Assembly: GCA_031701365.1 (NCBI GenBank) | Contig: GCA_031701365.1_4118.1 | DNA: 64,000 bases | DNA from: Escherichia coli | GTDB lineage: Bacteria > Pseudomonadota > Gammaproteobacteria > Enterobacterales > Enterobacteriaceae | Strand: one strand, 5' to 3' | Shown: positions 9,942 through 63,320 of the stretch, piece after piece | How the letters are laid out: each line of letters starts with the position of its first letter | How positions within the stretch are numbered: position 1 is the stretch's first letter | Translations under genes and position numbers: made by a program | The notes under the pieces: generated by a model | What the model was told of the DNA's origin: nothing | Seen by the model: only the letters and a program-made list of their open reading frames with translations | The model's database searches: none

Positions 9942-9973
9942 GAGTTCTGATAGTACTGAGAGTACAAATGTTC

Positions 9974-10002: not shown

Positions 10003-10031
10003 GCACCAACGTTAATCATAGGGTACAGATT

Positions 10032-19180: not shown

Positions 19181-19189
19181 GATTATAAA

Positions 19190-19660: not shown

Positions 19661-19661
19661 A

Positions 19662-20569: not shown

Positions 20570-20571
20570 TA

Positions 20572-22555: not shown

Positions 22556-23088
22556 TGAAAGTTAACATCAATGACTTTGATGCATTACAAGATTTATCAA
22601 AAAAGATTCGCATAATCGTACCAGTACTCAAAAAATGCAGTACTGGTTTAATTGATCCTAGTACTGTTGTTAATGAGAAGTACAATTTTCATCGTGTATT
22701 ACAGGGTACAGGTGCATTTCAGAAGTGTGATGTACGTGAGAAACACGTAATTGATACATCATTGTTTTCTATTGGTGCACCTGTGTCGAATAATTCTATT
22801 TTCCTGGATAACGCAGGAAATATTCAACAATTAACATTTAAGAAAAGGAAAAAGAACAATAACATTGGTGTGTACGCGATGAAGTGGGGTCAACCTGATT
22901 TGAAGCGTGAAATTCACATCCCTAAGTACAATTACAATGCATTTGACGAACAGTGTTTTCAACTATCGTGTACTGACCCTGACTATGCAATCATTCAGTT
23001 CTATATGGAATTGCAGATAGCATTTAACAGTAATTTATATATTAACTTGTTGGCAATGAACATCGATGAAGTATTCAAAAACATTTAA
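22552..23088 (+). CDS. family B protein 25
   Basis: DEQCFQLSCTDP. Confidence 0.55.
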   Translation: MMKVNINDFDALQDLSKKIRIIVPVLKKCSTGLIDPSTVVNEKYNFHRVLQGTGAFQKCDVREKHVIDTSLFSIGAPVSNNSIFLDNAGNIQQLTFKKRKKNNNIGVYAMKWGQPDLKREIHIPKYNYNAFDEQCFQLSCTDPDYAIIQFYMELQIAFNSNLYINLLAMNIDEVFKNI

Positions 23089-23284
23089 TCGAATTGAATA
23101 CATGAGAACTGTGAGTGCAGTGTGGGATATATGGTTCACTACTAAACCAAAAATGGATTACCATGACTTTAAGCTCTTGTTCTTCGTTGGCTCTAACAAA
23201 CAGGATGTTGCAATGAAGGGTTATATTCAGCACTTACAGGAACTAATTCAGAAGAGGGTTAATGAAAATAATAGACCAAGATGA
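23066..23284 (+). CDS. family A small protein 28 (displaced copy)
   Basis: VGSNKQDVAM. Confidence 0.5.
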   Translation: MKYSKTFNRIEYMRTVSAVWDIWFTTKPKMDYHDFKLLFFVGSNKQDVAMKGYIQHLQELIQKRVNENNRPR

Positions 23285-23453
23285 TATTGCTAAACTATTC
23301 AATATATATTCTACTAGAATGATGCAAACCGACTCATATGGTACGGAATTCAAAGAGTTGAAAGTACTGATGTACTTGGGAACCCAATATCAGGAACAAG
23401 TTATTTTGGAATATATTAATTCGTTGAAGAAGGATATCCGTTATGTACGATGA
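23262..23453 (+). CDS. family A small protein 29 (displaced copy)
   Basis: LGTQYQEQVI. Confidence 0.55.
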   Translation: MKIIDQDDIAKLFNIYSTRMMQTDSYGTEFKELKVLMYLGTQYQEQVILEYINSLKKDIRYVR

Positions 23454-24003
23454 TTTAGATCTTGCGTTTGAACGTATGGTAATTTTAATGCAATGTGCAG
23501 AAATGCATGAAACAATCCGTCGCACCAAAGGGATTGAATATACAAGTAAACTATTCTCATACGAAAGTCGTCGAGGGATGGATCATTTTTACTGCACTGA
23601 TTGTTCAAAGTTTTCAGTACTGAAATATTATCATCCTACTGTTTCCAATAATAGTTTAATATCCACATATGACGGTGATCTGTTTAGTGTAATGTATGAC
23701 ACATTACATCCATCAATTTCAATCTATAAAGATTGCGATAGTAGTTTATCGTATATAATTGAAGATTACTTATCTCCTAATACTGAAGAGAATATTTTTC
23801 AGAACAGTGTGTTGCATGATGAATTAAGTATAAAATGCATCTATATGTTCAATAAGTTAAAAGAGTACGCCGATAATAATTACTTCATTGATGATTTAGC
23901 GGTATTGTCTGTTTCCGTTTTTAATACAAATGATATTGATATGAAATACTATAATGAGATTTATAAAGTACATCATATGTATAAGGAACTATTATGTCAA
24001 TAA
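23443..24003 (+). CDS. family B protein 26
   Basis: EENIFQNSVLHD. Confidence 0.6.
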   Translation: MYDDLDLAFERMVILMQCAEMHETIRRTKGIEYTSKLFSYESRRGMDHFYCTDCSKFSVLKYYHPTVSNNSLISTYDGDLFSVMYDTLHPSISIYKDCDSSLSYIIEDYLSPNTEENIFQNSVLHDELSIKCIYMFNKLKEYADNNYFIDDLAVLSVSVFNTNDIDMKYYNEIYKVHHMYKELLCQ

Positions 24004-24596
24004 ATGCAAATAAATGTTGTAGTGCAGATGTGCATTTGTTTTTTAAGAAATTGGCAAATGATATTATATATATGCAGGAAATGATTTATCACAAACGAGC
24101 GGATTTAGAAAAAGCATTAGTACAGTTCTCATTTATGCTTGATGGTGATATATTTCTAGAGAGTGATGCATTGCGAATAGTATTAGACAAAAATGCTAAA
24201 AGATTTTTATTTCATGTAGATAATAAATTATGTTCCTCCGTATGTCGTACTTTTTATAATCGTGATTCGGACTTATATCAATTCCTTTATTCTAAAGGTG
24301 CAGTAGAAGCATCATATGGTGATGGTTATGCCCTAGGAAAGAGTATTCCATTTATGAAATCATTTAAAATAGAACACATCAGTACTGATGAAGATGCAAT
24401 GTTCACAAATGATATAACTATGGGACGTGAAGATGCAATGCGATATATTACAAATTCTATGTATACATTCTTTCAACGAACAGAATTTGATAATGTATAT
24501 ATATCAAATGTAAATATTTTCAATGACCTGTGTCAGTACTTGAGAAGTGTTTGTAATTTCGATGAAAGCTATTGTAAGCTATATACTGAGGTATAA
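23994..24596 (+). CDS. family B-like protein 27 (divergent)
   Basis: MYTFFQRTEFD variant. Confidence 0.45.
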   Translation: MSINANKCCSADVHLFFKKLANDIIYMQEMIYHKRADLEKALVQFSFMLDGDIFLESDALRIVLDKNAKRFLFHVDNKLCSSVCRTFYNRDSDLYQFLYSKGAVEASYGDGYALGKSIPFMKSFKIEHISTDEDAMFTNDITMGREDAMRYITNSMYTFFQRTEFDNVYISNVNIFNDLCQYLRSVCNFDESYCKLYTEV

Positions 24597-24601
24597 AACA
24601 A

Positions 24602-24964
24602 ATGAACACATTAAGTATTACATACTATACAACTAAAAAATTAGTTACTTGTTTAATATCTTTGAAGACAAACCATGATGATATGTTTGATATGGCTGCA
24701 TATGAATTAGAATTATCAGAAGATGGCTTCAAGAGCTATGAAGTATATAGCTATGTCCGTGAAGATGTAATTGACACTACACTAATGCAAGAGGATGAGT
24801 TATTCCAAGAAAGTTTAGTATGGGATAATAAGTACGATTGTAACTTTGATTTCTTATGTTTAATCCAGAAAGAAATGAAAAGAATCTTTGATAATTATCC
24901 AATCAAACGTTTCAGTACTGCACCTGAGCAATATAAAAGGATTATATTCACCTATGAAGATTGA
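24602..24964 (+). CDS. family B protein 28
   Basis: DELFQESLVWD. Confidence 0.6.
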   Translation: MNTLSITYYTTKKLVTCLISLKTNHDDMFDMAAYELELSEDGFKSYEVYSYVREDVIDTTLMQEDELFQESLVWDNKYDCNFDFLCLIQKEMKRIFDNYPIKRFSTAPEQYKRIIFTYED

Positions 24965-25331
24965 ATTTGAAGTTATTACATATAGTATAGGTGATGGTAT
25001 CCGTTGCTATGTACAAGCAAGGCATATGGTTCCTGATGATAAACTGTCACCAAAAAGCTTCTGTATCACACAAGATCTCTTAGATATCAACGGAGAGAAC
25101 AAGTACATATATTATCTTACTAAGGGTTATTGTAGTACACGTGGTTTTAATATTGTAGCTGTTTCTAGAGATGAAATTGATGATTTAACTGAGTACGGGG
25201 AAGAAGAGATGTTCCAGTACAGTACTGTTTTTAATGAACTGGATGTGTTTCTGTTACGAAAAATACAACACATTATGCAAGAATGTTTGCATCATAAGAG
25301 AGGTATGGTATGCGACGTGAATCTGAATTAG
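24954..25331 (+). CDS. family B protein 29
   Basis: EEMFQYSTVFN; start ATG 24954. Confidence 0.6.
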   Translation: MKIEFEVITYSIGDGIRCYVQARHMVPDDKLSPKSFCITQDLLDINGENKYIYYLTKGYCSTRGFNIVAVSRDEIDDLTEYGEEEMFQYSTVFNELDVFLLRKIQHIMQECLHHKRGMVCDVNLN

Positions 25332-25651
25332 TTAAAGTAATGTACGCTACTCATATTAAACTACTACTTGTTAAATTTGATTATAATAAAAAACATAATG
25401 ATTTCTATACTTTAATTCGTGATGAAAATACATTCTCCTTGCGATGCAACAATATACCCTTGAAGATAAATGATTTTACTTCACTTGACGAGGGGGAATT
25501 ATTTCAAGAATCATTAGTTTTTAATAGTAATATAAAAATTGATATAGAAGTTATTAAAAAATACCAGATTCTATTGAACAAAATTATGAATTGTTATCCA
25601 TGTGAAATAGGTGGTCATATGCAGTTCAAATCAAAAATGTATGAATTATGA
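25310..25651 (+). CDS. family B protein 30
   Basis: GELFQESLVFN. Confidence 0.6.
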   Translation: MRRESELVKVMYATHIKLLLVKFDYNKKHNDFYTLIRDENTFSLRCNNIPLKINDFTSLDEGELFQESLVFNSNIKIDIEVIKKYQILLNKIMNCYPCEIGGHMQFKSKMYEL

Positions 25652-25658
25652 GGTTTAT

Positions 25659-26195
25659 ATGTTAGATAAAAAAATGAACTCTGGAACCCAATATAATCAT
25701 CTTAAGTTGGATACATTCGAATCAGCTATCAGTACAGCACAAGATATAATTGATATTATCAAGTTCATTAAAGAAGATAAGTTCAAATGTTTGAAAATAC
25801 TAAATCGTTCAATGTACCGTGATAAAAATATTCATGTATCAGTACGTAGACCGAAAGATCAAGAAAGTGGGAGAGATTTCTATAACAACAGTGAGCAGTT
25901 CGAATGTGAATATGATCCAGAATTTAGAGGTGGTTTCATGTGTTACTGTATGAAGGATACCTCACACATTGAGATACGTTCATCGAAAGGTGGCATACGT
26001 ACATTAGAGTTTATTGATATAGTTTTAAATCAGGAATACTACTTTCAACTATCATTATTGTTTCCTGCATACGATTTAGGAGTTCTATTCATGTATAAGT
26101 ACTTTCATGAGCACTGGAATGAAGACTTCTATCTGGACTTAGAAGATTACCACTTAGTTTGGAAAGAAATGGTAAAACTTCGCAACCCATCTTGA
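25659..26195 (+). CDS. family B protein 31
   Basis: QEYYFQLSLLFP; start ATG 25659 after GAGG. Confidence 0.6.
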   Translation: MLDKKMNSGTQYNHLKLDTFESAISTAQDIIDIIKFIKEDKFKCLKILNRSMYRDKNIHVSVRRPKDQESGRDFYNNSEQFECEYDPEFRGGFMCYCMKDTSHIEIRSSKGGIRTLEFIDIVLNQEYYFQLSLLFPAYDLGVLFMYKYFHEHWNEDFYLDLEDYHLVWKEMVKLRNPS

Positions 26196-26254
26196 CACCC
26201 TCCGATTCTTTGTGATATAATCTCTTTATATTAATTGTAAAGGGTTATATCACA

Positions 26255-26731
26255 ATGTCCAAAGACCTATCATTTAGCAATGCACAAAAAATAGCAAAAG
26301 ACATTATCAGGGTTTATAAATTCCTTACAAATGTTACTGAAGATTTTTCCGTAGGCAAACATACAGTCAAAAAACGAAATGGATACCTTTCCTTTATGGA
26401 TGGGTTACTCTATAGTTCAGATGAATCAACTTGTAGTATTAGAGTGCTTGATGAAGTACCAAGTGGTGATTTTATTTCATACCATTTCCCAAGTTCAGAT
26501 AATTTCAAATACTACAATCATCATCTTATAAATGAAGGATTTGATACGGCTGAAATTAACACTGAAGAAGAGTTCTTCCAGTACAGTACTGTGTATCCAG
26601 AGAGGATTGTTTTCAGTTCAGTGATTTACACTGCCCTTAAAAATGAACTAAATTCAGATAGTGATCATTTCTACTTGGACCTGAACAATATCGATTGTAT
26701 TATTGAGTACCTGGAGAAAAATGGTTTATGA
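26255..26731 (+). CDS. family B protein 32
   Basis: EEFFQYSTVYP. Confidence 0.6.
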   Translation: MSKDLSFSNAQKIAKDIIRVYKFLTNVTEDFSVGKHTVKKRNGYLSFMDGLLYSSDESTCSIRVLDEVPSGDFISYHFPSSDNFKYYNHHLINEGFDTAEINTEEEFFQYSTVYPERIVFSSVIYTALKNELNSDSDHFYLDLNNIDCIIEYLEKNGL

Positions 26732-27222
26732 TTACTACAGAATATGATTACGATGGTGTTTTAGAATTTGCAGACAATATCTATCGCATTGCAAAGGAGT
26801 TCAGAAGTCCTGACCCATTTGGTGGTATGTTCGAATACGATGAGTTTAGTTCATCCAAAGGAAGACTTGCGTTTACTAATGTAAGAGGTAATCAAATCTA
26901 TGCCGAGTACTTTGATGACAATGACTTTCATTACAAAGCCGGATACATTTCATATTGCCCTGGGTCTGATTTGAAGATTAATATTGACAATTATAGAGAA
27001 GCAGTATTTGTTAAGTATGATGATTTAGTGTTCATGTCAGAGGAAATGTACTTTCAGGGTTCTTGTATTCATGATGTAAAAGTACTTAATGCTATGTTAT
27101 TTTATGGTGCACTACTTCATCATTACAAATACAAACAACGATTCTTTTTAGATTTAGTAGTATACTATAAATGCGTGGATTATTTGAATGCAAAATACGA
27201 CAACAATTCAGTACATGACTGA
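26728..27222 (+). CDS. family B protein 33
   Basis: EEMYFQGSCIHD. Confidence 0.6.
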   Translation: MITTEYDYDGVLEFADNIYRIAKEFRSPDPFGGMFEYDEFSSSKGRLAFTNVRGNQIYAEYFDDNDFHYKAGYISYCPGSDLKINIDNYREAVFVKYDDLVFMSEEMYFQGSCIHDVKVLNAMLFYGALLHHYKYKQRFFLDLVVYYKCVDYLNAKYDNNSVHD

Positions 27223-27550
27223 TGGTACTGAATACTTTGTTTCAAGATATGTAATCAACCACAACCATTATGTAACCTATATTCCAGAATACAATCAATT
27301 TTATATCCAGATTTATCAATATAATGGAAAGATAAATGATATATATTCAGAAATAAAAATCCCTGATTATAGTACTTTATCAGAAGAGGAATTGTTTCAG
27401 CAGAGCACTATCAGTACTGAAGATGTGTACGAAATAATGGAATACCAGAAGGTACTTAAACATTTTCATGAAGTACAGGATATACAAATAGATATTCTTA
27501 CTGCATGGAGTTATATCACACACGAGGTAAATTATGTTCGAAATGATTAA
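27215..27550 (+). CDS. family B protein 34
   Basis: EELFQQSTIST; start ATG 27215. Confidence 0.55.
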   Translation: MTDGTEYFVSRYVINHNHYVTYIPEYNQFYIQIYQYNGKINDIYSEIKIPDYSTLSEEELFQQSTISTEDVYEIMEYQKVLKHFHEVQDIQIDILTAWSYITHEVNYVRND

Positions 27551-27947
27551 AATTATACAACGATGTGTTGTTGACAAACACGGGATATATGGATATCGTT
27601 TAAGTGCTCCTATTGACAAAAATAAAACAACCTATGTAAGCTATAATGCTGTACAAGGATTTGATATATTCATTAGTACTAAAGTTCAAATCAAACAAGC
27701 TAAAGATGTGTCTATGATGACTCCTGAAGAGATATTTCAATACAGCTTAGTTCTGCCTACATGTATCGATTTACAACGTCTAGGAGCGATACAGAAGGTT
27801 TTACGCGAACATAAAGTACAACCCAATAAAGTTACACACCTTCCAGAAACATTCTTCAAAACAATAGAAGTAGAAACTCCTGATTATATGTTAAGTGATG
27901 ATGAGTACTACGAGAAACACTTCCCTGGTAAAGATTGGAGAGATTGA
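27534..27947 (+). CDS. family B protein 35
   Basis: EEIFQYSLVLP. Confidence 0.6.
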   Translation: MFEMIKIIQRCVVDKHGIYGYRLSAPIDKNKTTYVSYNAVQGFDIFISTKVQIKQAKDVSMMTPEEIFQYSLVLPTCIDLQRLGAIQKVLREHKVQPNKVTHLPETFFKTIEVETPDYMLSDDEYYEKHFPGKDWRD

Positions 27948-28438
27948 TGAACCGAAAGTACAGAGAAACTATGAAGTTTGCTAGGGAGTGTTTAGAAGTG
28001 TTTGAGTTCATCAATGCTCATAAAGATTTACTCCATAGATACATTGCAATCAGTGAGACAGATGACCATAGGTACATATGTTCTCGAATTCAAGATAAGA
28101 TATATAAGATTGTGTTCTCGGAAACATACACAGATACATCTAATTCACTATATGATTTTGCACGTACTGATTACGTTTCATACAAATCTTGGTCTGATAG
28201 TATTAAAATTGTGCACAAGCAAAATACATTTTATTCTTTTCTTACGGACATTTCCGAAGAAAGTTACTTTCAAAACAGTTTAATTTATACAGAAAAAGAA
28301 CTCAAAATGTTATATATTATGTCGTACTTTAAAAAGTACTGCAAATTTAATACATTATCTTTTGAGATTTCTGCAATGAAAGTATTCATTAAAAATGTAA
28401 AAGAATTAAAGAGGGCTTTTAATGTACATAGAAAATGA
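27935..28438 (+). CDS. family B protein 36
   Basis: EESYFQNSLIYT. Confidence 0.6.
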   Translation: MERLMNRKYRETMKFARECLEVFEFINAHKDLLHRYIAISETDDHRYICSRIQDKIYKIVFSETYTDTSNSLYDFARTDYVSYKSWSDSIKIVHKQNTFYSFLTDISEESYFQNSLIYTEKELKMLYIMSYFKKYCKFNTLSFEISAMKVFIKNVKELKRAFNVHRK

Positions 28439-33395: not shown

Positions 33396-33947
33396 ATGAA
33401 CTACAATCATGATCTTTTTACATTATGTGCATCCAAATGTGTTGATGGATGGACAGATAAAATCAATACCATAATTCATCGATATCTGGTCTTTAGTTCT
33501 CGTGCTCGAAGTGAGGGGGCTATGGATTTCAAATATACACTATCTATTGATGGTGTAACTATCCATGCAGACGAAGAACGTCTGAGCATTAATTTGTATG
33601 ATTCCTGTGTATTTGCTATTCACCAAAAGATGGGGAAAGGATGGGGTTGTAATAACATTAACTCAAAAGCTATCTTTTGGGTTGGTCACCACCAGACAGT
33701 ACTTGATCCTTCAATCAAATCTAATCTTTTAACCGACAACATCGTTTATGATTTAGCGTACCCTGAAGAACTACATTTCCAGTTGAGTACATTACATAAT
33801 TTGGCACACTACGATGATTGTTATAAAACATTAGAACTATGCCATTCCCTTGATCTTAAAGATAAATTGATACAAGTTTACCCTTCATTCTTTCATGAAG
33901 AAGTACAAAGTACACTAGATCATATTTTATATGGATACGATAAATGA
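33396..33947 (+). CDS. family B protein 46
   Basis: ELHFQLSTLHN; AAAGGAG RBS. Confidence 0.6.
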   Translation: MNYNHDLFTLCASKCVDGWTDKINTIIHRYLVFSSRARSEGAMDFKYTLSIDGVTIHADEERLSINLYDSCVFAIHQKMGKGWGCNNINSKAIFWVGHHQTVLDPSIKSNLLTDNIVYDLAYPEELHFQLSTLHNLAHYDDCYKTLELCHSLDLKDKLIQVYPSFFHEEVQSTLDHILYGYDK

Positions 33948-34546
33948 GAAAAAGTTATCAAGAAGCTATTGACTTAATTCGTGAAGTTATCAAGGTGGCT
34001 CCTGCTGCTATTGAGTTCAAGAAGTCCATATACAAGAAGTATGGTCCAATGTCGAGTATGTGCTTTCAAAAGAAACGTAGTGCATATACTACACAGTACT
34101 GGAATGATTCTATCATCCTGAGCAATGAGACTCAGCGTATTTTATCTCTAGAATCTGAACCTACTGATTACGGGGAAGGGAACATTTGTGTACCTGATTA
34201 TGATGAAATTAACTTCAACTGCGGTGATTTTGAAACAACATTATTACTTCATGAGGGTTATCCAGAAGGTGATGTATTAGCTGAGTACAATCCAAAAACT
34301 AAAATTCTCAAAAGTGGAATCCAGTTCACTATTAATAACAAAGATGATGTTCAAGCAGCACTGATGCAACTGAGTACAAGTGAACCTATCACTATTAGTG
34401 TAGAAGAGTTATGGGGAATTATTTCAGTACTCAATGAGTGCTACAAAGTAAAATCATTGCGTAAACACAGCATTATATTACATACCAATATGGCAAATAT
34501 AAAATGTAAGCACATTCAAGAAATGGTGGTTCCAGATGGACTTTAA
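33944..34546 (+). CDS. family B-like protein 47 (divergent)
   Basis: AALMQLSTSEP variant. Confidence 0.5.
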   Translation: MRKSYQEAIDLIREVIKVAPAAIEFKKSIYKKYGPMSSMCFQKKRSAYTTQYWNDSIILSNETQRILSLESEPTDYGEGNICVPDYDEINFNCGDFETTLLLHEGYPEGDVLAEYNPKTKILKSGIQFTINNKDDVQAALMQLSTSEPITISVEELWGIISVLNECYKVKSLRKHSIILHTNMANIKCKHIQEMVVPDGL

Positions 34547-35120
34547 AGAAATTGAAAGTAAATTAAAGTACTTCAAAGATATCAAACTTCTTTGGAAAAA
34601 GTATAAAGTTGATTACAATTTCAGTGATGATGAGACAATAAAATACATTGAGATTAATATCAAAATCAAGTTCAAGAATAATAATTATGGTGAAGTAACC
34701 TTAAATCATACTGGTATATCACTCAAGGACTATGATGGTACAACACTCGCATATTTTGACTTCACACCAGAACCAGGTGAAACACTACTTAGTGAGATAA
34801 ATTCCTATGACATGGAAGTGTTCGGCGGGAATCCGTTACTGTTCCGACTTTCTGAAGAGTGGAGTGAAGAGTACTACACTTACAAAGATGGTGTAGTACT
34901 TGACATTCATGGAGAAGTTGTGAATGACTTGGAAGAACGTTTGTTCCAAGAATTGTGTGTTTCAAATACTTCATATGCATACAATCATATCCTTGACATG
35001 TTTGATTTATATAGTAAAATAGATGCTGAAATGAAGGCACATGGTATTCATTACCTTACAATTAACGACTATGCTCAACTCGAAACCGCTGTGAAAGCAT
35101 TGACTAAAGTACTGAAATAG
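34536..35120 (+). CDS. family B protein 48
   Basis: ERLFQELCVSN. Confidence 0.55.
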   Translation: MDFKEIESKLKYFKDIKLLWKKYKVDYNFSDDETIKYIEINIKIKFKNNNYGEVTLNHTGISLKDYDGTTLAYFDFTPEPGETLLSEINSYDMEVFGGNPLLFRLSEEWSEEYYTYKDGVVLDIHGEVVNDLEERLFQELCVSNTSYAYNHILDMFDLYSKIDAEMKAHGIHYLTINDYAQLETAVKALTKVLK

Positions 35121-35129
35121 GAATGAAAT

Positions 35130-35543
35130 ATGAAACTGTATCATGCGAGTACTGTAAAAATTGATAACTTTTATATCCCGTATGGTGGTCTTCATATGGG
35201 AGGTAAACACAGTGCTTTGGAAGCTGCATTACGCAAGCTGAGAAGCCCACTGAACGTAGTAGACGCATGTACAGTATACTTGCATACCTTAGAAGTTGAT
35301 GTTGATAACGTGCTTCTGTGTGAAGATTTAGGCAGTGATGATGAGTGGCGTTCACTTATTGAGAATTGCACTGCTCAAGGTTATGATGCTGTTCAGTACA
35401 AAAATGACTACGAGCCTGATAATGTTCCTAGTTATATGATTTGGGATGCATCTAAAGTTCGCATCATTGAAGTTGATGCTATGCATATGGATGAAGCTGA
35501 AATAATTATCGAAGATTTTCTTGATGAATATGAAGGTGTATAA
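35130..35543 (+). CDS. hypothetical protein (not family B)
   Basis: 137-aa ORF MKLYHASTVKID..., acidic C-terminus; no family motif. Confidence 0.55.
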   Translation: MKLYHASTVKIDNFYIPYGGLHMGGKHSALEAALRKLRSPLNVVDACTVYLHTLEVDVDNVLLCEDLGSDDEWRSLIENCTAQGYDAVQYKNDYEPDNVPSYMIWDASKVRIIEVDAMHMDEAEIIIEDFLDEYEGV

Positions 35544-36079
35544 TGACTGACCCGATGGTAGCACTGGCACGTACTAAGTTACTATTAAAGATTGGTGAGA
35601 TTTTTACGGTTCTTCTGTCCAATAATATTGATATTACTGAGCTAGATATTAAGCAACCGTGGGAAGTGACTATGTTCTCGGCGTTCCACCGATTGTCATA
35701 TAAAGGTGAAAGTGTTCTTGATTTTAACCCTAAAGCAAAATTCATAGATTATGCTGCGTTGTACAGAGAGTTGCACCGAAATATTTATTCCGGTTGTATA
35801 ACCAATAACTTCAAAGAAATTAAAGTTCAAACTGCATCACATGAGTTCAATGATTTACTTTATCCAGAATTTAATCTAACTGAAGAATTACTCTTTCAGT
35901 ACTCGTTAATTCTCACAAATCTCGAAACGTTAGAGTACTACAAAGAGTTAGTAGATATTTTTATGAATACACGACTTTCAAAAGATATTGTGATATTCTG
36001 GTATACAGAGCATGTTACGGAGGAATTGCTTACTGAATTTCTTCTAAATATGACAGCTATAAAGGAGAAGTTATGTTAG
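35543..36079 (+). CDS. family B protein 49
   Basis: ELLFQYSLILT. Confidence 0.6.
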   Translation: MTDPMVALARTKLLLKIGEIFTVLLSNNIDITELDIKQPWEVTMFSAFHRLSYKGESVLDFNPKAKFIDYAALYRELHRNIYSGCITNNFKEIKVQTASHEFNDLLYPEFNLTEELLFQYSLILTNLETLEYYKELVDIFMNTRLSKDIVIFWYTEHVTEELLTEFLLNMTAIKEKLC

Positions 36080-42713: not shown

Positions 42714-43243
42714 AAGAAACATGTGTATTAACGTTTGGTCGTATTAATCCTGTACATCGTGGACATGGTTTAGTTTTTGAAAAGGCCAAAACATTACAAG
42801 AACAGTACAATGCTGATTTAAAAATATATCTAAGCACCAGTACTGACAATATAAAAAACCCACTCCCACCTGAACTAAAAATGTATTATACAGAGGGATT
42901 CTATCCTTCAGTGCAAGAGAACATCTACACAGAAGACAATCTATTTGATATAATGAGAGAACTGGATGGAAAGTACTTAGATGTTCTTTTCATTTGTGGT
43001 TCTGACCGTATTGATTCTTTTCAAAAAACTCTTGACATGTACAATGGTAAGTTGTATAATTTTTGTAGTATAAAAGCAATTCAGGCAGGTATTGACCGTA
43101 ATGTAAGTCAATATAGCTCAACACAAATGCGTAACTTCGCAAAAAATGAAGATTTTGATAGTTTTCGTGAGTTTTTACCTGGAAATGACGAGGACTTAAA
43201 AATACAATTATTTGAAGACGTTATAAAATACATGAGGAAATAA
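42710..43243 (+). CDS. HxGH-motif nucleotidyltransferase (adenylyl/cytidylyltransferase-like)
   Basis: N-terminal TFGRINPVHRGH (HxGH); about 177 aa. Confidence 0.6.
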   Translation: MKETCVLTFGRINPVHRGHGLVFEKAKTLQEQYNADLKIYLSTSTDNIKNPLPPELKMYYTEGFYPSVQENIYTEDNLFDIMRELDGKYLDVLFICGSDRIDSFQKTLDMYNGKLYNFCSIKAIQAGIDRNVSQYSSTQMRNFAKNEDFDSFREFLPGNDEDLKIQLFEDVIKYMRK

Positions 43244-49749: not shown

Positions 49750-50013
49750 ATGAATATCCAAGATAGATTACAATTACTGTACACACTTGAACAGGCTGCT
49801 TTTGAACTTGTTCGAAAAATATCAGATGAACTACCTAAAGGAACTAAAGTTCGTGTACGTGAGATGAATTATTTTTCTGGAGTAATTGAAGAACAAGTAC
49901 TAACAGTGAATAAAGTAACATACTATGAATCTGAGTTGTCTATTCAGTGTGAATCGGATGATGGATTAATATCATATTATGGAACTGATGTAGATATAGA
50001 GGTAATAAAATGA
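49750..50013 (+). CDS. family D-like small protein
   Basis: ORF 49705-50013, start ATG 49750; SDELPKGTKVRV. Confidence 0.5.
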   Translation: MNIQDRLQLLYTLEQAAFELVRKISDELPKGTKVRVREMNYFSGVIEEQVLTVNKVTYYESELSIQCESDDGLISYYGTDVDIEVIK

Positions 50014-51152
50014 CCCTTTTACAAATATATGAAGATTTAATGCACTTATGTAATACAAACGATGCATTCTTTTATGTGGATCATAAAAGTCCTGCTGGTG
50101 GCACGTATCGTGTATTCAGTTATCGCCTAGCATCATACACTGATTTCATGCAACCAAATGCGTTGGAAACCCGTGGCTCTATGTGGGAAATTGATGAAGA
50201 AGGTGACATGATACGTTGTGCAGCACGTACAATGAAAAAGTTCTTCAATGCTTACGAGAATCCTGCTACAATGTTCCCTGCTAACACCACATGCGATGAC
50301 ATTGCGGTCGTGATGCCTAAGTTGGATGGTTCGATTATCAGTACTTATCGTGATAATGATGGTGAGATTCGTTGTAAATCACATACTGCATTGTATTCTG
50401 ACCATGCGATTAACAGTACTCGACTTATTAACGAGAACCAGAATTTGTATCAGTACATCGACGAAGCGGAACGTTTAGGTTACACAGTTAATATGGAGTA
50501 TACAAGCCCAGAGTACCGAATTGTATTACCATATCAGGTAGAACAACTGTTTGTACTGAACGTTCGACATCGTGTGAGTGGTGAGTTGCTATGTGGTAAA
50601 GCACTACGTGATAAGTTTCCATGTCTTGCACAGTACAGTACTAATATGACCGGAAAAGATATTCATCACACTTTTCCGGTACGAAATACCTTCCGTGAAA
50701 GCGTGGAGGAAGTTCATAAAATGCTTGATATTGAGGGTTTTGTGTGCATCCTAAATAATGGGACAATGTGTAAAATAAAAACTGACTGGTACAGTTCATT
50801 ACATCTTACAAAAGATAGTATTATTATTGATTCTCATTTATATGAAGCCGTATTAAATGGTTCAAGTGATGATTTAAAACAATTGTTCAGTACTGATGAA
50901 TATGCTATGCAAAAGATATTAAGAATGGAACATTTGGTATTTTCGTGCTATAATGCATTACAAGATGAAGTAGAAAGCTTCGTCAAGGAACACAAGCACT
51001 TGGAGCGAAAGGAATTCGCAATGAAGGTTCAGGAGTGTTTAACTAATGAACTGAATCGTCAGGGCTTGGCCTTTGCAATGTATAACAATAAGAAAGTTGA
51101 TTACAAAGAGACTCTTATAAAATACATGAAAATTGTACTAAAGGATTTTTAG
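50010..51152 (+). CDS. rnlA: RNA ligase 1 (T4 Rnl1 homolog)
   Basis: Recalled alignment to T4 Rnl1 over N-terminal region (FFY..D, GxxYRxFSY, ALExRG, MPKLDGS), including lysine-nucleotidyltransferase KxDG motif. Confidence 0.9.
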   Translation: MTLLQIYEDLMHLCNTNDAFFYVDHKSPAGGTYRVFSYRLASYTDFMQPNALETRGSMWEIDEEGDMIRCAARTMKKFFNAYENPATMFPANTTCDDIAVVMPKLDGSIISTYRDNDGEIRCKSHTALYSDHAINSTRLINENQNLYQYIDEAERLGYTVNMEYTSPEYRIVLPYQVEQLFVLNVRHRVSGELLCGKALRDKFPCLAQYSTNMTGKDIHHTFPVRNTFRESVEEVHKMLDIEGFVCILNNGTMCKIKTDWYSSLHLTKDSIIIDSHLYEAVLNGSSDDLKQLFSTDEYAMQKILRMEHLVFSCYNALQDEVESFVKEHKHLERKEFAMKVQECLTNELNRQGLAFAMYNNKKVDYKETLIKYMKIVLKDF

Positions 51153-52248: not shown

Positions 52249-53181
52249 ATGCCAACTATTACACTAACAGTTGGATTACCTGGGTGTGGAAAAACCACAT
52301 GGGCAGTTCAAGAAATTAAAAATGCCAAATCGAAGACTATCAACATTAACCGTGATGACATTCGAGAATCAATGGCAGGGTCACATGATGCATACAAATT
52401 CAACGACGCTAATGAGCAGTACGTAACTAAAATGCAGTTCAGTGCAGCAAATTCAGCAGCAGAGAATGGTTGGAACATCATTGTGTCCGATACGAACCTT
52501 AAACAACATTTCCGTGATGAATGGAAACGTTGGGCTAAAGATAATGAATACGACTACAAAGAAAAGAACTTCTACGAAGATTTTGTACCGAATGAAGATC
52601 GTGGTGCAGATGTTCATGTTTTCTTTAAGATTAAAGAGTTCGTAAAACTTTGTAAGAAACGTAACCTCATGCGTGAGCGTTCAGTACAAGATAATATCAT
52701 TGACACTATGGCAGATACGTACTATTATAGTAAGGCCATGCACATTGGTTACTATGGTAATTCACGAGAAGCTGCTATCATCGTTGATATCGATGGAACT
52801 CTTGCTCATAAATGGGGGCGTAACCCGTTCGATGAAAGTACTGTTCTTCAGGATACACCTGATGAAGAAGTTATTTTGTCTATTATCGCTGAAGCAGTTT
52901 TTCATAAACGCAAGATTATCGTCATGAGTGGGCGTACTGAAGGGTGTCGTGCTGATACCGAACAGTGGCTTAAGAATTGGGGTGTTCCTTACGATGCATT
53001 GTTTATGCGAGATATCGATGATAAACGTCCTGATGATGTTGTAAAATTCGACCTGTACATGAAAAATGTGGTTGATCATTACGATGTTAAAAAGGTATAT
53101 GATGACCGAGCACAAGTCGTATTCATGTGGCGTAAGCTACTTGGCTTGAAAGTTTTTCAAGTTGCAGAAGGAAATTTCTAA
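52249..53181 (+). CDS. pseT: polynucleotide 5-prime kinase / 3-prime phosphatase (T4 Pnk homolog)
   Basis: P-loop GLPGCGKTTWA and INRDD kinase motifs; HAD phosphatase DIDGTLA motif; C-terminal WQVAxGxF as in T4 Pnk. Confidence 0.9.
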   Translation: MPTITLTVGLPGCGKTTWAVQEIKNAKSKTININRDDIRESMAGSHDAYKFNDANEQYVTKMQFSAANSAAENGWNIIVSDTNLKQHFRDEWKRWAKDNEYDYKEKNFYEDFVPNEDRGADVHVFFKIKEFVKLCKKRNLMRERSVQDNIIDTMADTYYYSKAMHIGYYGNSREAAIIVDIDGTLAHKWGRNPFDESTVLQDTPDEEVILSIIAEAVFHKRKIIVMSGRTEGCRADTEQWLKNWGVPYDALFMRDIDDKRPDDVVKFDLYMKNVVDHYDVKKVYDDRAQVVFMWRKLLGLKVFQVAEGNF

Positions 53182-57632: not shown

Positions 57633-57860
57633 ATGAAAGTAATTCAAGTTATGGTAGAAAAATACCAAACTGAAGATGGTCGTATTTTTGATTCAGCTAA
57701 ACAAGCTGAACACCATGAACGTATTATTTCGGGTGCACGTAAAGTGTGTCCTACATGTAGTGGAACACAACAAGTACCGTCAGAAGATTACCGCAGCTTT
57801 TATGCTTGTCCACACTGTGATGGGAAAGGCTATGTAGAAAAACAAGAGGTATGGAAATGA
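57633..57860 (+). CDS. small zinc-finger protein (DnaJ-type CxxCxGxG-like)
   Basis: CPTCSGTQ and CPHCDGKG motifs. Confidence 0.6.
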   Translation: MKVIQVMVEKYQTEDGRIFDSAKQAEHHERIISGARKVCPTCSGTQQVPSEDYRSFYACPHCDGKGYVEKQEVWK

Positions 57861-59480: not shown

Positions 59481-60899
59481 ATGAGCATTTTAGCAATTCT
59501 TGAAAGCATTAAAAATACTAGCAGTACTCTAGGCAAAAAAGCTATTCTTGAACAAAATAAAGATAATGTAACTTTGCAAAAAGTACTGAAATATACACTC
59601 GATCCTAGTATTGTAAGTGGGTATAAAAAGCTACCAGACGCTGATAACGTGTATCAACATATGACATTGGATGAAGCTATTGATAAACTAGAATGCATCT
59701 ATAAGCGTGCATTGACGGGACATACAGGGCGTGATTTCATTGCTTCAGTACTAGGTAGTGTGAGTCCAGATGATGCTGAAGTTCTTCGTAAGATGCTTAC
59801 AAAGAACTTAGATTGTGGTATTCAAGAAAAGAACTGCAATGATGTATTTGGTAAAGGATTTATTAAAGATGAACCATATATGCGTTGTTCTTTGCTTGAT
59901 AAAAAGACTGTTAAGAACATCAACTTCAAAGGTCATGGTTATGCTGTCTCCGAGGTCAAGATGGATGGTCAGTACTTAAACCATGTAGTCATTAATGGTG
60001 CTCTTACCTCTTCCTCCCGTAATGGTAAACTATATGACTTCTTAGGTTGTCGTGATGGTGAGATGGCAGGTCTTGCACATCAAATTCAAATGAATGATGA
60101 ACGTTTTAGTAGTGGTGTCGTCTTTATGGGTGAAGGTCTAGTACTTGATAATGACGGTGAAACTATTCTTCCACGAACAACTGGTAATGGTATCATTCAG
60201 AAGGCTGGTAAAGATAGTATTAGTCAGAATGAAGCAATGCGTACTGTATTTGTACTATGGGATGTTGTTCCGTATGATGCATTCTGTGAAGGTACATGGA
60301 ATGTAAAACGTAAAGAACGTCGCGAACTTCTTGAATCTGCCATCAATGTATTGGGTAGTGATTTTGTACGTATGGTGAAATACCGTAAGGTTCAAAACAT
60401 TAAAGAAGCATTTGAGTACAATAACGAACTCATGGTTCAGGGTGAAGAAGGATCAGTACTGAAATGTGAAGATGGTATCTGGAAATCACATACATCTCCT
60501 AAGCAGTTGAAAGTAAAACTAAAAATGCAATTGGATTTGCGTATTGTTGGTTTCAACGAAGGTGAAGGTAAGCGTAAAGGTTCACTTGGTTCTTTACAAC
60601 TTGAAAGTGCATGTGGCACACTGAAGGTAAATGTAGGAACAGGTATTAAAGAGAAAGATGCAGAGTGGACGTTCAAAACCATTTGGGAACGAATGCAAGA
60701 ACTAATTGGTAAAGTCGTTACCGTTGAGTGCAATGAGATTGTAATCGACAAGCGTACAGGTGAACCATCACTATTTTTACCAGTGTTTATTGAATTTAGA
60801 TTTGACAAGAACACATGTGACGATTATACTCGTATTTTAGAAATTCGTGATAGTGCTGTTGAGGTATTCTCGAACAGTATCATTGAAGCACTTAGCTAA
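59481..60899 (+). CDS. ATP-dependent DNA ligase (T4 gp30 homolog)
   Basis: N-terminus aligns with T4 DNA ligase as recalled (GxKAILEQNKDN), adenylation-site KMDGQ (KxDG) and further T4-ligase-like blocks. Confidence 0.9.
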   Translation: MSILAILESIKNTSSTLGKKAILEQNKDNVTLQKVLKYTLDPSIVSGYKKLPDADNVYQHMTLDEAIDKLECIYKRALTGHTGRDFIASVLGSVSPDDAEVLRKMLTKNLDCGIQEKNCNDVFGKGFIKDEPYMRCSLLDKKTVKNINFKGHGYAVSEVKMDGQYLNHVVINGALTSSSRNGKLYDFLGCRDGEMAGLAHQIQMNDERFSSGVVFMGEGLVLDNDGETILPRTTGNGIIQKAGKDSISQNEAMRTVFVLWDVVPYDAFCEGTWNVKRKERRELLESAINVLGSDFVRMVKYRKVQNIKEAFEYNNELMVQGEEGSVLKCEDGIWKSHTSPKQLKVKLKMQLDLRIVGFNEGEGKRKGSLGSLQLESACGTLKVNVGTGIKEKDAEWTFKTIWERMQELIGKVVTVECNEIVIDKRTGEPSLFLPVFIEFRFDKNTCDDYTRILEIRDSAVEVFSNSIIEALS

Positions 60900-60918
60900 T
60901 CATTTATTGGAGGTAATT

Positions 60919-61710
60919 ATGAAATTTGTTGTAACATCTGACGTACACGGTGGAACTGATTACCTCCATAGCGGTGATTACAGTGATGTAGTACTGATCA
61001 TTGCTGGTGACTTTGATGAAGTTAAACGCAGTCGTTATCGTACTGGGATCGAAGAACTGTGTAAGCAGTTCTATAAGGTAGTACTGGTTCCAGGAAATCA
61101 CGAATACTACGGTTCCAATATCCAAAAGACGCATCAAGTACTATCCAATATGCAGGATGAGATTCCTAATTTTATCTTTTTGCAAAACAAATTTGTATGG
61201 CTGGATGGAGTACTGCTTGTTGGTAGTACTCTGTGGACAGACTTCGATAAAGGTAATTCTTTGACGAAGTTTGATGCTCGTCAGAAGATGAACGATTACA
61301 AACATATCCGTCATGGAACAACATCAGAGCCTTGGCGTAAGAAACTGACACCTGATGATACTGAGTTTATGCATCACAAAGATAAACAATTTATCAAAAA
61401 TTCTATTGACACAGTTCGCTTTATGCATGATAATGATTTCAAGGTCATCGTGATTACTCATCACGCACCAAGTTATCAAAGTGTTTCACCAAAATATAAA
61501 AATGATTCACTAAATGGTTGTTACTGTTCCGATATGGATCAGTACATTGAAGATTTGGGTGCTGATGTTTGGATTCATGGTCATGTTCATAGTAGCTTTG
61601 ACTACCACATTGGTAAGACACGTATCATTTGTAATCCACGAGGCTATGAATCGTATAGTGGAGCTTGTGAGAATTTTGATTACAATCCTAAATTTGTATT
61701 TGAAATTTAA
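60919..61710 (+). CDS. metallophosphoesterase (calcineurin-like)
   Basis: SDVHG, GDFDE, GNHEYYG and GHVH motifs; ORF 60847 with start ATG 60919 after GGAGG. Confidence 0.8.
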   Translation: MKFVVTSDVHGGTDYLHSGDYSDVVLIIAGDFDEVKRSRYRTGIEELCKQFYKVVLVPGNHEYYGSNIQKTHQVLSNMQDEIPNFIFLQNKFVWLDGVLLVGSTLWTDFDKGNSLTKFDARQKMNDYKHIRHGTTSEPWRKKLTPDDTEFMHHKDKQFIKNSIDTVRFMHDNDFKVIVITHHAPSYQSVSPKYKNDSLNGCYCSDMDQYIEDLGADVWIHGHVHSSFDYHIGKTRIICNPRGYESYSGACENFDYNPKFVFEI

Positions 61711-61722
61711 TGTGAGGATACA

Positions 61723-62106
61723 GTGTCATTGATTTATTTTGAACTACCAGAATATACCAATTATCCAAGCCGAGTTATTTGCTCAGTTTATAGTAATGCA
61801 TATCATCACTTGTTAGTGAATAGTAATAAAGCTGTGCATTATTATCGAAATAAAGAACCACGTACATTAAAGAATCGTTATGGTTTTGACCCAACTAACA
61901 CTGAAGTTGAACTCTGTGATCTGTTTGGGGAAGTAATGGTGGTGTTGAAACGAGATATTCATCTTTTCCATACATACAAACTTAATCAGTACTTTATGGA
62001 AACACTGTCTATACGTTCCCATGCTCCGATGATTAAAGTTGATTTGAATTTTGTTGATGATAAATTGAAATATGATTTCATAAATTCACTTGTTTATTTG
62101 GAGTAA
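61723..62106 (+). CDS. hypothetical protein
   Basis: ORF with probable GTG start after GAGG. Confidence 0.5.
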   Translation: MSLIYFELPEYTNYPSRVICSVYSNAYHHLLVNSNKAVHYYRNKEPRTLKNRYGFDPTNTEVELCDLFGEVMVVLKRDIHLFHTYKLNQYFMETLSIRSHAPMIKVDLNFVDDKLKYDFINSLVYLE

Positions 62107-62107
62107 T

Positions 62108-62512
62108 ATGAATATACGTTCAGTACGAATATTTTCATTTGTTGATATGAATGAAAAACACTCTTATGTGTTTGAAACTGTCAATAAGTTAAATCCTCAT
62201 ACGGCAAAAATGATTGAAACCATGAAGATCTTGAGTTTGCATATAGAAGTTTACTATCTTCATGACGATTCTGTTTTTGTATATGATGATGGATGGTATG
62301 ACGGTGTGTTTTATGATGACATTAGCACTACTGCTGATTACTACTTTCTAGTGAGTAACCCACTATTCAGTACTAAAACTTTGTTTGACATTACCGATAC
62401 AAGCGTGTATGATACAAGTCATGTTGAGTTACTTAAGTTTGATCCAGTATTATTCAACAAAGAAACGGCGTATTGGATGACTGATTTCTTTTCAAATATT
62501 CCAGTAAAATAG
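62108..62512 (+). CDS. hypothetical protein
   Basis: ORF 62090-62512, start ATG 62108 after GGAG. Confidence 0.55.
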   Translation: MNIRSVRIFSFVDMNEKHSYVFETVNKLNPHTAKMIETMKILSLHIEVYYLHDDSVFVYDDGWYDGVFYDDISTTADYYFLVSNPLFSTKTLFDITDTSVYDTSHVELLKFDPVLFNKETAYWMTDFFSNIPVK

Positions 62513-62513
62513 T

Positions 62514-62542
62514 TTGGACATTTTAAATCTTAGTGATATAAT
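62514..62542 (+). promoter_or_regulatory. sigma70-like promoter upstream of clpP-like gene
   Basis: -35 TTGGAC 62514-62519, 17-bp spacer, -10 TATAAT 62537-62542. Confidence 0.5.
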
Positions 62543-62576
62543 ACTCACTACAACGAAATAATAGAGGAAATTAACA

Positions 62577-63272
62577 ATGGTTGAACAATTCATGTTTGGT
62601 GGTTATGCTAATGGCGAAGTACGTAACATTTCTATTCCTTACGTAGTTGAGAAAGTTAATGGTTCAGAACGTACATATGATCTAGCATCTCGTATGATGC
62701 AAGACCGTATCATTTTCCTTGATACTGATTTCAATGATCAAATGGCACATATCATCAAACAACAATTGGTGTGGTTAGACTCACAAGGTGATTCCCCTAT
62801 TACATTCTACATTAGTTCACCAGGTGGTTCAGTACACGCAGGTTTGGGTATTGCAGACGTTGCTAAGTCTTGTATTTCCCCAATCCGCACTGTAGTTATG
62901 GGTTATGCGGCATCAATGGGTTGCTATACACAATCTGTTATTGGAACTAAAGGTTTCCGTTTAGGTGGTAAACGCTCATACTTCATGTGTCACCAAGTAA
63001 GTTCTGGTACACAAGGTCTAATTACAGACCAGAAGATTTCCCTACAACATTCTGATGCACTGAATACATTGTTGACCAAAGAAATTGCAGAAGCAGTAGG
63101 CGTATCACATGAACAATTACTAAAAGATGCTGACCGCGATTTGTGGTTAAATGCAGAAGAAGCACTTGAATATGGTGAACATGGTTTCATTGATGGTATT
63201 ATTCTTGGACCACGTAACGAAGAAGGCAAGTACTTAGTTAAGCGTCGCGGCGGTGTGGAAGAGTGGGTGTAA
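62577..63272 (+). CDS. clpP: ClpP-like serine protease (peptidase S14)
   Basis: SPGGSV, GYAASMG (catalytic Ser), MCHQ (His) and DADRDLWLNAEEALEYG matching bacterial ClpP blocks. Confidence 0.85.
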   Translation: MVEQFMFGGYANGEVRNISIPYVVEKVNGSERTYDLASRMMQDRIIFLDTDFNDQMAHIIKQQLVWLDSQGDSPITFYISSPGGSVHAGLGIADVAKSCISPIRTVVMGYAASMGCYTQSVIGTKGFRLGGKRSYFMCHQVSSGTQGLITDQKISLQHSDALNTLLTKEIAEAVGVSHEQLLKDADRDLWLNAEEALEYGEHGFIDGIILGPRNEEGKYLVKRRGGVEEWV

Positions 63273-63320
63273 GATAGATTTTGATGCCTCAATATGGGGC
63301 ATCATCTTTGTGGAGATTAT

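Follow-up and report, generated by a model that had tools for sequence, protein, structure and literature searches.

A canonical ClpP and its probable ClpA and ClpS partners in Escherichia phage 121Q and related Rak2-like jumbo phages

Gene 464 and Its Locus

The DNA analyzed here is a stretch of 64,000 nucleotides (hereafter, the window) from contig GCA_031701365.1_4118.1 of the Escherichia coli assembly GCA_031701365.1. The window shares ~99% identity with Escherichia phage 121Q, a Rak2-like jumbo myovirus of the genus Asteriusvirus with a genome of 348.5 kb, and its position 1 corresponds to position 151,788 of 121Q. The subject of this study is the clpP-like gene at 62577–63272, which is gene 464 of 121Q. 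In the list of open reading frames (ORFs), it starts with ATG and encodes 231 amino acids (aa), and its coordinates include the stop codon. Coordinates of gene 464 and its flanking signals are window positions, all on the plus strand. The neighbors of gene 464 are genes for a DNA ligase and a metallophosphoesterase, and hypothetical genes. The gene and its identity as ClpP have been on record since the annotations of 121Q and PBECO4, and the kind of system to which it belongs is already known. No functional study of a phage ClpP of the gene 464 type was found in the literature.

An earlier note on this DNA had described a 231-aa ClpP homolog at this position, with an apparent catalytic Ser in GYAASMG, a His in MCHQ, and a downstream Asp region. 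These blocks are present as described. GYAASMG corresponds to residues 109–115 and contains Ser113 (codon at 62913–62915), MCHQ corresponds to residues 137–140 and contains His139 (62991–62993), and the Asp is Asp188 in DRDLW (63138–63140). In the alignment with bacterial ClpP, the three residues are in register with Ser97, His122, and Asp171 of E. coli ClpP. The E. coli reference was checked against the MG1655 translation and was identical to it; the residue numbering is that of the mature protein. A substitution in the triad was looked for, but the triad is intact, and each of its residues is invariant in all 66 clade members compared as well as in an alignment of 69 sequences.

The first 19 residues (62577–62633) form a variable leader that is weakly conserved among the 66 clade members. 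Residues 1–10 have a predicted local distance difference test score (pLDDT) below 50 in the AlphaFold2 (AF2) model. The leader precedes the axial-loop motif P21-x-V23-x-E25...E31-R32-x-x-D35 and is possibly a propeptide, comparable to the 14-aa propeptide of E. coli ClpP.

Family, Fold, and Constraint of the Gene 464 Protein

The gene 464 protein matches the Pfam family PF00574 (CLP_protease) with an E-value of 4.2e-41 over model positions 2–179 of 182. At E ≤ 1e-5, it matches 109 ClpP sequences in PDB, and the best PDB matches by phmmer, from 1e-36 to 1e-26, are all ClpP. Some clade members also match PF25145 (NfeD1b_N) below the threshold, at a position overlapping the ClpP domain. This match was rejected as an extra domain, being a sub-threshold match from a related ClpP-fold family.

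The AF2 model, built with 69 homologs, has a mean pLDDT of 92.3 and a predicted template modeling score of 0.85. With this predicted structure as the query, Foldseek matched ClpP from Thermus thermophilus, Staphylococcus aureus, Neisseria meningitidis, and E. coli, with target-normalized TM scores of 0.90–0.96 and root-mean-square deviations of 1.2–2.0 Å. The ClpP fold, composed of the alpha/beta head domain and the handle helix, is thus predicted for gene 464. By homology, its product is expected to form a barrel from two rings of seven subunits each.

A database search placed gene 464 in a clade of ~67 protein clusters with 58–96% identity, many of them on contigs of ~350 kb. Besides the triad, the oxyanion residues Gly84 and Met114, corresponding to Gly68 and Met98 of E. 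coli, vary little or not at all among 66 relatives. The axial-loop residues P21, V23, E25, E31, R32, D35, S38, and R39 are conserved in the clade and align to P4, V6, E8, E14, R15, D18, S21, and R22 of E. coli. This axial-loop motif serves in gating and in communication with the ATPase.

The nucleotide sequences show the same constraint. All 14 nucleotide differences between gene 464 and its counterpart in phage G17 are synonymous. Between gene 464 and the WPEC3 gene, dS is 0.85 and dN/dS is 0.033. The low dN/dS together with the invariant triad indicates that the protease is constrained rather than decaying. Gene 464 is thus judged to be under strong purifying selection and to be neither a decaying nor a decoy copy, and its product is predicted to be a canonical, catalytically competent ClpP. 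A recent capture from the host was considered and rejected; identity to E. coli ClpP is 35%, below the 42–43% to ClpPs of Firmicutes and Thermus.

The C-terminal tail (aa 211–231; 63207–63269) distinguishes the clade. Its motif, G-x-R-N-x-x-G-Q/K-Y-x-V-K-R-R-x-G-x-x-E/D-W-V, is conserved throughout the Rak2-like clade and is missing from canonical ClpPs. The AF2 model predicts the tail to be ordered (pLDDT ~92–96), with two short strands, and the tail is left uncovered by every solved ClpP chain matched with Foldseek. Gene 464 also has a 3-residue insert at residues 200–202.

Phage-Encoded ClpA and ClpS

A full-length ClpA of 762 aa is encoded by 121Q gene 581 (298,257–300,545 in 121Q). This gene stands alone on the plus strand amid structural genes on the opposite strand. 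It scores 755 bits with the ClpA model TIGR02639, over positions 5–732 of 734 and above ClpB, and its Pfam architecture is AAA / AAA_lid_9 / AAA_2 / ClpB_D2-small. It is 42–44% identical to E. coli ClpA and retains both sets of Walker A and B motifs and the pore loops KYR and GYVG. The ClpP-docking loop is IGM, corresponding to IGL in E. coli ClpA. The orthologs have IGV (Muenster), LGM (CBB), and IGF (PAC2) at this site, which indicates that the docking tripeptide is maintained.

Gene 48 of 121Q encodes a 181-aa protein with a ClpS domain (PF02617; 24.7 bits against a cutoff of 23). A profile of five diverged gene 48 orthologs matched E. coli ClpS structures at 1.7e-9, and its top 10 matches were all ClpS. 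The ClpS core is ~31% identical to E. coli ClpS and is accompanied by conserved extra modules at the N- and C-termini. Genes for an IF3 homolog, the ClpS-domain protein, and a KTSC-domain protein are arranged in this order in 121Q, RaK2, Munch, CBB, and XaC1; in 121Q they are genes 47–49, at locus coordinates 33944–35620. Such a coupling of a translation initiation factor with a protease adaptor is unusual.

A phage collection was searched with tblastn, in which ClpP and ClpA were counted at 60% identity or higher. Records numbered 70 for ClpP, 71 for ClpA, and 72 for the ClpS-like protein. The totals for ClpP, ClpA, and ClpS also match by host genus: Escherichia (34, 33, and 34), Klebsiella (10, 11, and 10), Salmonella (8, 10, and 8), and Erwinia (8, 8, and 8). 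When 99.5% of the 121Q genome was searched with local tblastn, no ClpX, no other Hsp100 protein, and no second canonical ClpP came up.

Two other genes of 121Q are protease-like. Gene 473 (218420–219028 in 121Q), ~3.4 kb downstream of gene 464, encodes 202 aa with a signal-peptide-like N-terminus. Its matches to the ClpP fold are sub-threshold (16.7 bits with Pfam and 23.8 bits with NCBIfam), and sigma70-like sites are present upstream. A role as partner subunit in a ClpP1P2-type core was considered for it and rejected on account of its 21% identity, its N-terminus, and the sub-threshold matches. Gene 475 (219356–219952) is annotated as a member of the HslV family; it scores 19 bits with the HslV model and has no Pfam match.

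The Head Module and the Head Maturation Label

121Q has a T4-type head module at 330.7–336.8 kb, ~119 kb away from gene 464. It contains a portal gene (598), a Peptidase_S77 gene of the T4 gp21 family (601; 9.9e-21), a scaffold gene (602), and the gene for the Gp23 major capsid protein (603; 1.3e-89). Cleavage of the gene 603 product from 42 to 37 kDa has been reported (PMC5646251). No capsid, scaffold, or portal gene is present within the 64-kb window. The earlier note had placed the ClpP gene away from capsid genes, and the distance of gene 464 from the head module bears this out.

A neighbor-joining tree with 200 bootstraps was built from the gene 464 clade, cellular ClpPs, and three ClpP-like prohead proteases encoded next to portal genes (Paenibacillus phage Honeybear gp4, Pseudomonas phage phPA-G, and Fusobacterium phage JD-Fnp5 gp48). 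The gene 464 clade, with 91.5% bootstrap support, is nested among cellular ClpPs at 35–46% identity. The prohead proteases stand apart as a group of their own (97% bootstrap support) and are 20–27% identical to gene 464. A grouping with the prohead proteases, which the earlier note had named as grounds for abandoning its proposal, is thus not what the tree shows. With NF045542, the model for ClpP-related head maturation proteases, gene 464 scores 51.3 bits, and the cutoff is 120.

The name "head maturation protease" is nevertheless attached to these proteins. It is carried by gene 464 in RefSeq NC_025447, by JP4, E9.1, the PBECO4 RefSeq entry, and WPEC3, and as a protein name in GAP32, and it has been carried through RefSeq and Pharokka-type annotations. 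The gene 464 protein matches phrog_94, "head maturation protease," at 4.6e-44, but only at positions 56–262 of the 622-position profile. PHROG 94 seems to combine genuine ClpPs with prohead proteases of the ClpP fold. The label is probably wrong for gene 464, and PHROG 94 is probably its source.

Promoters of the Clp Genes and the Window

The sigma70-type promoter predicted upstream of gene 464 at 62515–62542 consists of TGGACA (62515–62520), a 16-nt spacer, and TATAAT (62537–62542). It matches the consensus at 11 of 12 positions, and a TG at 62534–62535 extends the -10 element. The promoter is located inside a 64-nt non-coding spacer, 35 nt 5' of the ATG. A Shine-Dalgarno sequence, GAGGA (62564–62568), lies 8 nt 5' of the ATG and is kept in G17, WPEC3, and the RaK2-type ortholog. 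A terminator-like hairpin is predicted at 63282–63304, 10 nt 3' of the stop codon; it has a 10-bp stem with five G-C pairs, a 3-nt loop, and a T-rich run. In WPEC3, the stem is kept and the loop is changed.

The promoter, already proposed in the earlier note, is conserved in diverged relatives. The RaK2-type ortholog, with 70% protein identity, has TTGACA-16-TGtTACAAT at the matching distance. WPEC3 has TAGACA...TGaTATAAT at a dS of ~0.85, while the spacer sequence diverges. In the CBB/GAP32 branch, the ClpP gene abuts a different upstream ORF and lacks a dedicated promoter. In the Escherichia and Klebsiella lineages, gene 464 appears to be an independent unit with a promoter and a terminator.

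In DNA with 33% GC, as in the window, one promoter match like that of gene 464 is not unusual. Across the window, matches at 9 or more of 12 positions show no excess (34, against 38.8 in shuffled sequences). At 11 or more of 12 positions, 19 sites are found on the plus strand, which is the coding strand, and two on the minus strand, against an expectation of 3.5 ± 1.8 per strand. Five of these plus-strand sites are TG-extended, against 0.29 expected. Many of the near-consensus sites lie directly 5' of ORF starts; plus-strand examples with a perfect 12/12 match are at 1122–1149, 2312–2339, 26192–26221, and 43032–43060. This distribution is consistent with transcription of the whole 64-kb block by unmodified host RNA polymerase. 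Host RNA polymerase dependence throughout infection has been described for a related phage, PA5oct (PMC7318152).

Promoters of the other Clp genes are of the same class. Gene 581 has TAGACA-16-TGaTATAAT at -68 upstream; its counterpart is a perfect 12/12 match with TG in Muenster and a 10/12 match with TG in CBB. In 121Q, the IF3 gene directly 5' of gene 48 has a sigma70 promoter with the 12/12 consensus. Upstream of the major capsid protein gene 603, the T4 late motif TATAAATA is found at -53, and upstream of the gp21-like protease gene 601, ATAAATA is found at -24. Neither the T4 late motif nor TGAAACG, the middle-type motif reported for CBB and GAP32, was found in a search 5' of gene 464. 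The same three promoter classes are described for the phage group of CBB in the CBB paper (PMC5259590).

As all three Clp genes lie behind sigma70 promoters, host RNA polymerase would express them apart from the late head genes. The promoter classes thus support expression of ClpP alongside its presumed partners, ClpA and ClpS, and separately from the head genes. Early expression of gene 464 is presumed from its promoter. For Rak2-like ClpP genes, the literature yielded no transcript data, and the clpP entry in PhageExpressionAtlas is the host gene of S. aureus. Clp goes unmentioned in the PA5oct omics paper, and the Sharanji paper covers neither Clp nor promoters.

Proposed Role of the Phage Clp Proteins

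The gene 464 protein (gp464) is proposed to be the core of a phage-encoded ClpA–ClpP protease with a ClpS-domain adaptor. The probability of this reading is estimated at roughly 0.65. It draws on the family and fold of gp464, its constrained active site, the separate prohead protease, the presence and distribution of ClpA and ClpS, the docking loop, and the promoter classes. The phage's own ClpA and ClpS, with their matching distribution, make a phage partner likelier than host ClpX or ClpA alone.

From these observations, we infer how ClpA and ClpP would pair, in what oligomeric state, at what time, and on which substrates, as follows. Host RNA polymerase would express ClpP, ClpA, and ClpS before, or independently of, the gp55-type late head genes. 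The IGM loops of the ClpA encoded by gene 581 (gp581) would dock on the gp464 rings. The gp581 hexamer would unfold substrates and pass them on to the chamber of ClpP. The ClpS-domain adaptor encoded by gene 48 (gp48), co-transcribed with IF3, would bind the N-domain of ClpA and alter or deliver the substrates. The phage Clp machine would then degrade host proteins, phage proteins, or both during infection.

Several observations weigh against this reading. The docking pocket of gp464 differs from that of E. coli ClpP at Y60T, F82S, and L114G, and these changes could mean weakened docking of the ATPase. In the NCBIfam models for cellular ClpP (TIGR00493 and NF001368), gp464 scores 151.6 and 155.2 bits, whereas the equivalog cutoffs are 308.6 and 249. 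Judged by these scores, it is a divergent ClpP, below ortholog grade for the housekeeping bacterial ClpP. The 755 bits of gp581 are likewise below the TIGR02639 equivalog cutoff of 993. The N-degron pocket of the phage ClpS is partly conserved, with Asn34 replaced by Asp and His66 by Asn in most orthologs. The genes for ClpS, ClpP, and ClpA are dispersed, at 35 kb, 214 kb, and 298 kb, and form no operon. Their co-occurrence consists only of matching record and genus counts. The CBB ortholog of ClpP was detected in virion mass spectrometry by a single unique peptide, with 4.5% coverage.

The pocket changes were viewed against other ClpPs. Fourteen positions of this hydrophobic pocket, which receives the IGF and IGL loops of ClpX and ClpA and is known from work on acyldepsipeptides (ADEP), were compared. 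Y62 and M92 are kept in gene 464, and I90V and L189I are conservative. Position 114 (E. coli numbering) is Gly in 94% of the gene 464 clade. Positions 60 and 82 differ among functional ClpPs as well, with His at 82 in S. aureus and Lys at 60 in Thermus. The canonical pocket is kept in Atu_ph07, which encodes both ClpX and ClpA, and is altered in the phages that encode ClpA only (Rak2-like phages and PAC2). This pattern, a lead from a small sample, hints at co-adaptation of the phage ClpP to the phage ClpA.

What the ClpA–ClpP–ClpS system does for the phage can be read in more than one way. It is possible that it performs housekeeping, in the form of quality control and amino-acid recycling for a phage proteome of ~600 proteins, rather than attacking chosen host factors. 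121Q encodes further proteins related to proteostasis, namely the DnaJ-like zinc finger protein of gene 457, the Cpn10/GroES-like proteins of genes 58 and 615, and the weakly HslV-like protein of gene 475, and the ClpS gene adjoins the phage IF3 gene, providing a link to translation. Clearance of aggregates was suggested for the Clp set of Atu_ph07 by Attai et al. 2018 (PMC6102473). However, ClpAP, ClpXP, and Lon are already available in the host, and a duplicate maintained at a dN/dS of 0.03 in ~70 records suggests specialization. The pocket and the extra terminal modules of the phage ClpS also differ from the bacterial adaptor.

A more specialized version of the proposed protease is a machine insulated from the host. 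The remodeled pocket and the clade-specific ordered tail of the Rak2-like ClpP would fit the loops of the phage ClpA (IGM, IGV, or LGM), and the phage ClpS, with its extra modules and altered N-degron pocket, would select the substrates. Expressed from host-type promoters, the machine would selectively destroy certain host proteins, such as defense or regulatory factors, and would ignore or evade control by host ClpX and ClpA. This version is doubtful at present.

It is unlikely, though compatible with the phage-encoded protease as an additional activity, that the phage ClpP docks on ClpX or ClpA of the host, or enters mixed rings with host ClpP, and thereby redirects, boosts, or blocks host proteolysis. 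The host has ClpX, ClpA, and ClpP, and the axial-loop motif for communication with the ATPase is conserved in gp464. Iyer et al. 2021 proposed an anti-host role for jumbo-phage ClpP and the feeding of host ClpAP by phage ClpS (PMC7824862). On the other hand, the same Rak2-like phages have a full ClpA of their own with its docking loop, and mixed rings are less likely at 35% identity to E. coli ClpP. The pocket at positions 60, 82, and 114 is unlike that of E. coli, and it is Atu_ph07, encoding also ClpX, that keeps the canonical residues. The earlier note had suggested manipulation of host proteolysis rather than prohead maturation, with association with host ClpX or ClpA as something to look for. 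Its exclusion of prohead maturation stands, but host ATPases become less likely as the partners, as the phage has its own ClpA.

It is very improbable that gp464 travels in the virion as a protease of the head or the inner body and is either delivered with the DNA or active in the capsid. The ClpP ortholog CBB_104 is listed in the electrospray tandem mass spectrometry of CBB virions (PMC5259590), but by one unique peptide at 4.5% coverage, which is under the usual standards for identification. Bubblegram evidence indicates an inner body in 121Q (PMC5646251), and annotated virion structural genes (468 and 471) lie 1.4–2.7 kb downstream of gene 464. Against these, ClpP is absent from the 62 proteins found in virions of the near-identical phage phAPEC6, in which the ClpP locus is at least 94% identical to the window. 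The 121Q annotation puts no structural flag on gene 464, and a sigma70-type promoter fits poorly with a late structural gene. The phAPEC6 virion data include the major head protein, the scaffold, a "prohead core scaffold and protease," and the portal, and no Clp protein (PMC7247149).

Head maturation by gp464, as named in RefSeq and by the best PHROG match, and conceivable in that ClpP-fold prohead proteases exist in other phages, is largely refuted by the Peptidase_S77 gene adjoining the scaffold and capsid genes with their late-type motifs, the 119-kb distance and sigma70-type promoter of gene 464, the tree and identities, the NCBIfam score of 51 against 120 bits, the missing counterpart in the phAPEC6 virion proteome, and the lack of the C-terminal scaffold-like extension of portal-adjacent examples (240–358 aa). 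The separate gp21-type protease, the tree, and the promoter class together argue that gene 464 has no role in prohead maturation, which is predicted to be performed by the T4 gp21-type protease of gene 601.

Neighboring Genes and Other Features

A gene annotated as ATP-dependent DNA ligase, gene 460, is located at 59481–60899 of the window. A ClpP-type gene is found near a DNA ligase gene in three unrelated groups: 121Q (59481–63272 of the window), PAC2 (163230–168808), and PBC2 (81116–86529). The ligase gene is four genes upstream of the ClpP gene in 121Q and six genes upstream in PAC2, and it is directly downstream in the Bacillus phage PBC2-like siphoviruses. The neighborhood could reflect shared ancestry of 121Q and PAC2. 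In CBB/GAP32-type phages, the ORF ~100 nt upstream of the ClpP gene ends in repeated units similar to G-N-V-S-T-I-S-G-D-I/V, which are bactofilin-like or polymer-like; this ORF is absent upstream of gene 464 in 121Q.

Genes for chaperone-related proteins were observed both inside and outside the window. Gene 457 (57633–57860 of the window) encodes 75 aa with a DnaJ-type CXXCXGXG zinc finger, for which the Pfam match is sub-threshold. The Cpn10/GroES-like genes 58 and 615 of 121Q are outside the window. In PAC2, a DnaJ gene is located directly 5' of the ClpA gene.

By annotation, the window also contains genes for RNA ligase (438; 50010–51152) and polynucleotide kinase (443; 52249–53181), 1 kb apart. 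In T4, RNA ligase and polynucleotide kinase repair tRNA cut by host anticodon nucleases. Tandem arrays of small paralogous ORFs on the plus strand are present at 4164–11023 (with a further member region at 23066–23284), 19190–28438, and 18043–25651. The array families consist of 22 members of ~70–95 aa (27–48% identity), seven members of ~150 aa, and five members of ~120 aa; compare the 2017 report on 121Q (PMC5646251).

Comparison with Known Systems

The proteins of 121Q resemble the bacterial ClpAPS system in having all three components. The ClpP has the triad, the oxyanion residues, and the axial loop; the ClpA has two AAA+ modules, the KYR and GYVG pore loops, an N-domain, and an I-G-hydrophobic docking loop; and the adaptor has the ClpS fold. 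The differences are also clear. The 121Q genes are viral and dispersed, whereas clpS and clpA are adjacent in E. coli. Identity between 121Q and the host is 35% for ClpP, 42–44% for ClpA, and ~31% for the ClpS core. The phage ClpP has the 21-aa ordered tail, the 3-aa insert, and the altered pocket, and the phage ClpS has the extra terminal modules and the modified N-degron pocket.

Human mitochondrial ClpP has a C-terminal extension near the face on which the ATPase docks, and heteromeric ClpP1P2 cores have rings specialized for binding the ATPase. Both are precedents for a tail or an altered pocket that could tune the docking of the unfoldase. The tail of the phage protein has no sequence similarity to them, and 121Q has one canonical ClpP, gene 473 being very distant.

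A phage ClpP together with Clp unfoldases is shared with other huge phages, such as Atu_ph07, the PA5oct/PAC2 group, Lak phages, and phage G. The Agrobacterium phage Atu_ph07 encodes ClpX, ClpA, ClpB, ClpP, and ClpS, with ClpA also conserved in the majority of Rak2-like phages (Attai et al. 2018, PMC6102473). PAC2 has ClpP and ClpA, and its order of ligase, ClpP, and dCMP deaminase genes is as in 121Q. Lak phages and phage G have ClpX, in contrast to the Rak2-like clade, which has ClpA and no ClpX. The Rak2-like ClpP also differs from those of other huge phages in forming a clade apart (91.5% bootstrap) and in its particular C-terminal tail.

The ClpP-fold prohead proteases of small tailed phages share with gp464 the ClpP/crotonase-type fold family, the serine nucleophile, and matches to ClpP-related Pfam and PHROG families. 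They are longer (240–358 aa) and are encoded between portal and major capsid genes, a context that gene 464 does not have. T4 gp21 (Peptidase_S77) performs the maturation role that RefSeq assigns to gene 464, but its family is unrelated to ClpP, and the 121Q copy, gene 601, is in the canonical order of portal, protease, scaffold, and major capsid protein.

Significance

The phage Clp proteins have been given separate roles in the literature: ClpP as an anti-host protease, ClpS as a feeder of host ClpAP, and ClpA as an assembly chaperone. Iyer et al. 2021 (PMC7824862) proposed the roles of ClpP and ClpS and regarded phage ClpA and ClpX as chaperones. That paper exemplifies ClpS by AMM43882.1, the ortholog of gene 48 in CBB. 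What is added here is the view of the three parts as one likely system, together with the promoter classes, the separation from the prohead proteases, and the clade-specific tail.

The gene 464 system is no new kind of system. The practical value of the analysis is first of all a correction of annotation, as many Rak2-like genomes probably mislabel a canonical ClpP as "head maturation protease." The ~70 jumbo-phage records with ClpP, ClpA, and a ClpS-domain adaptor suggest that these phages carry their own machine for regulated proteolysis. Viewing the three as a single system provides a testable hypothesis, for which 121Q and PBECO4 in E. coli would be a tractable model of a virus-borne AAA+ protease.

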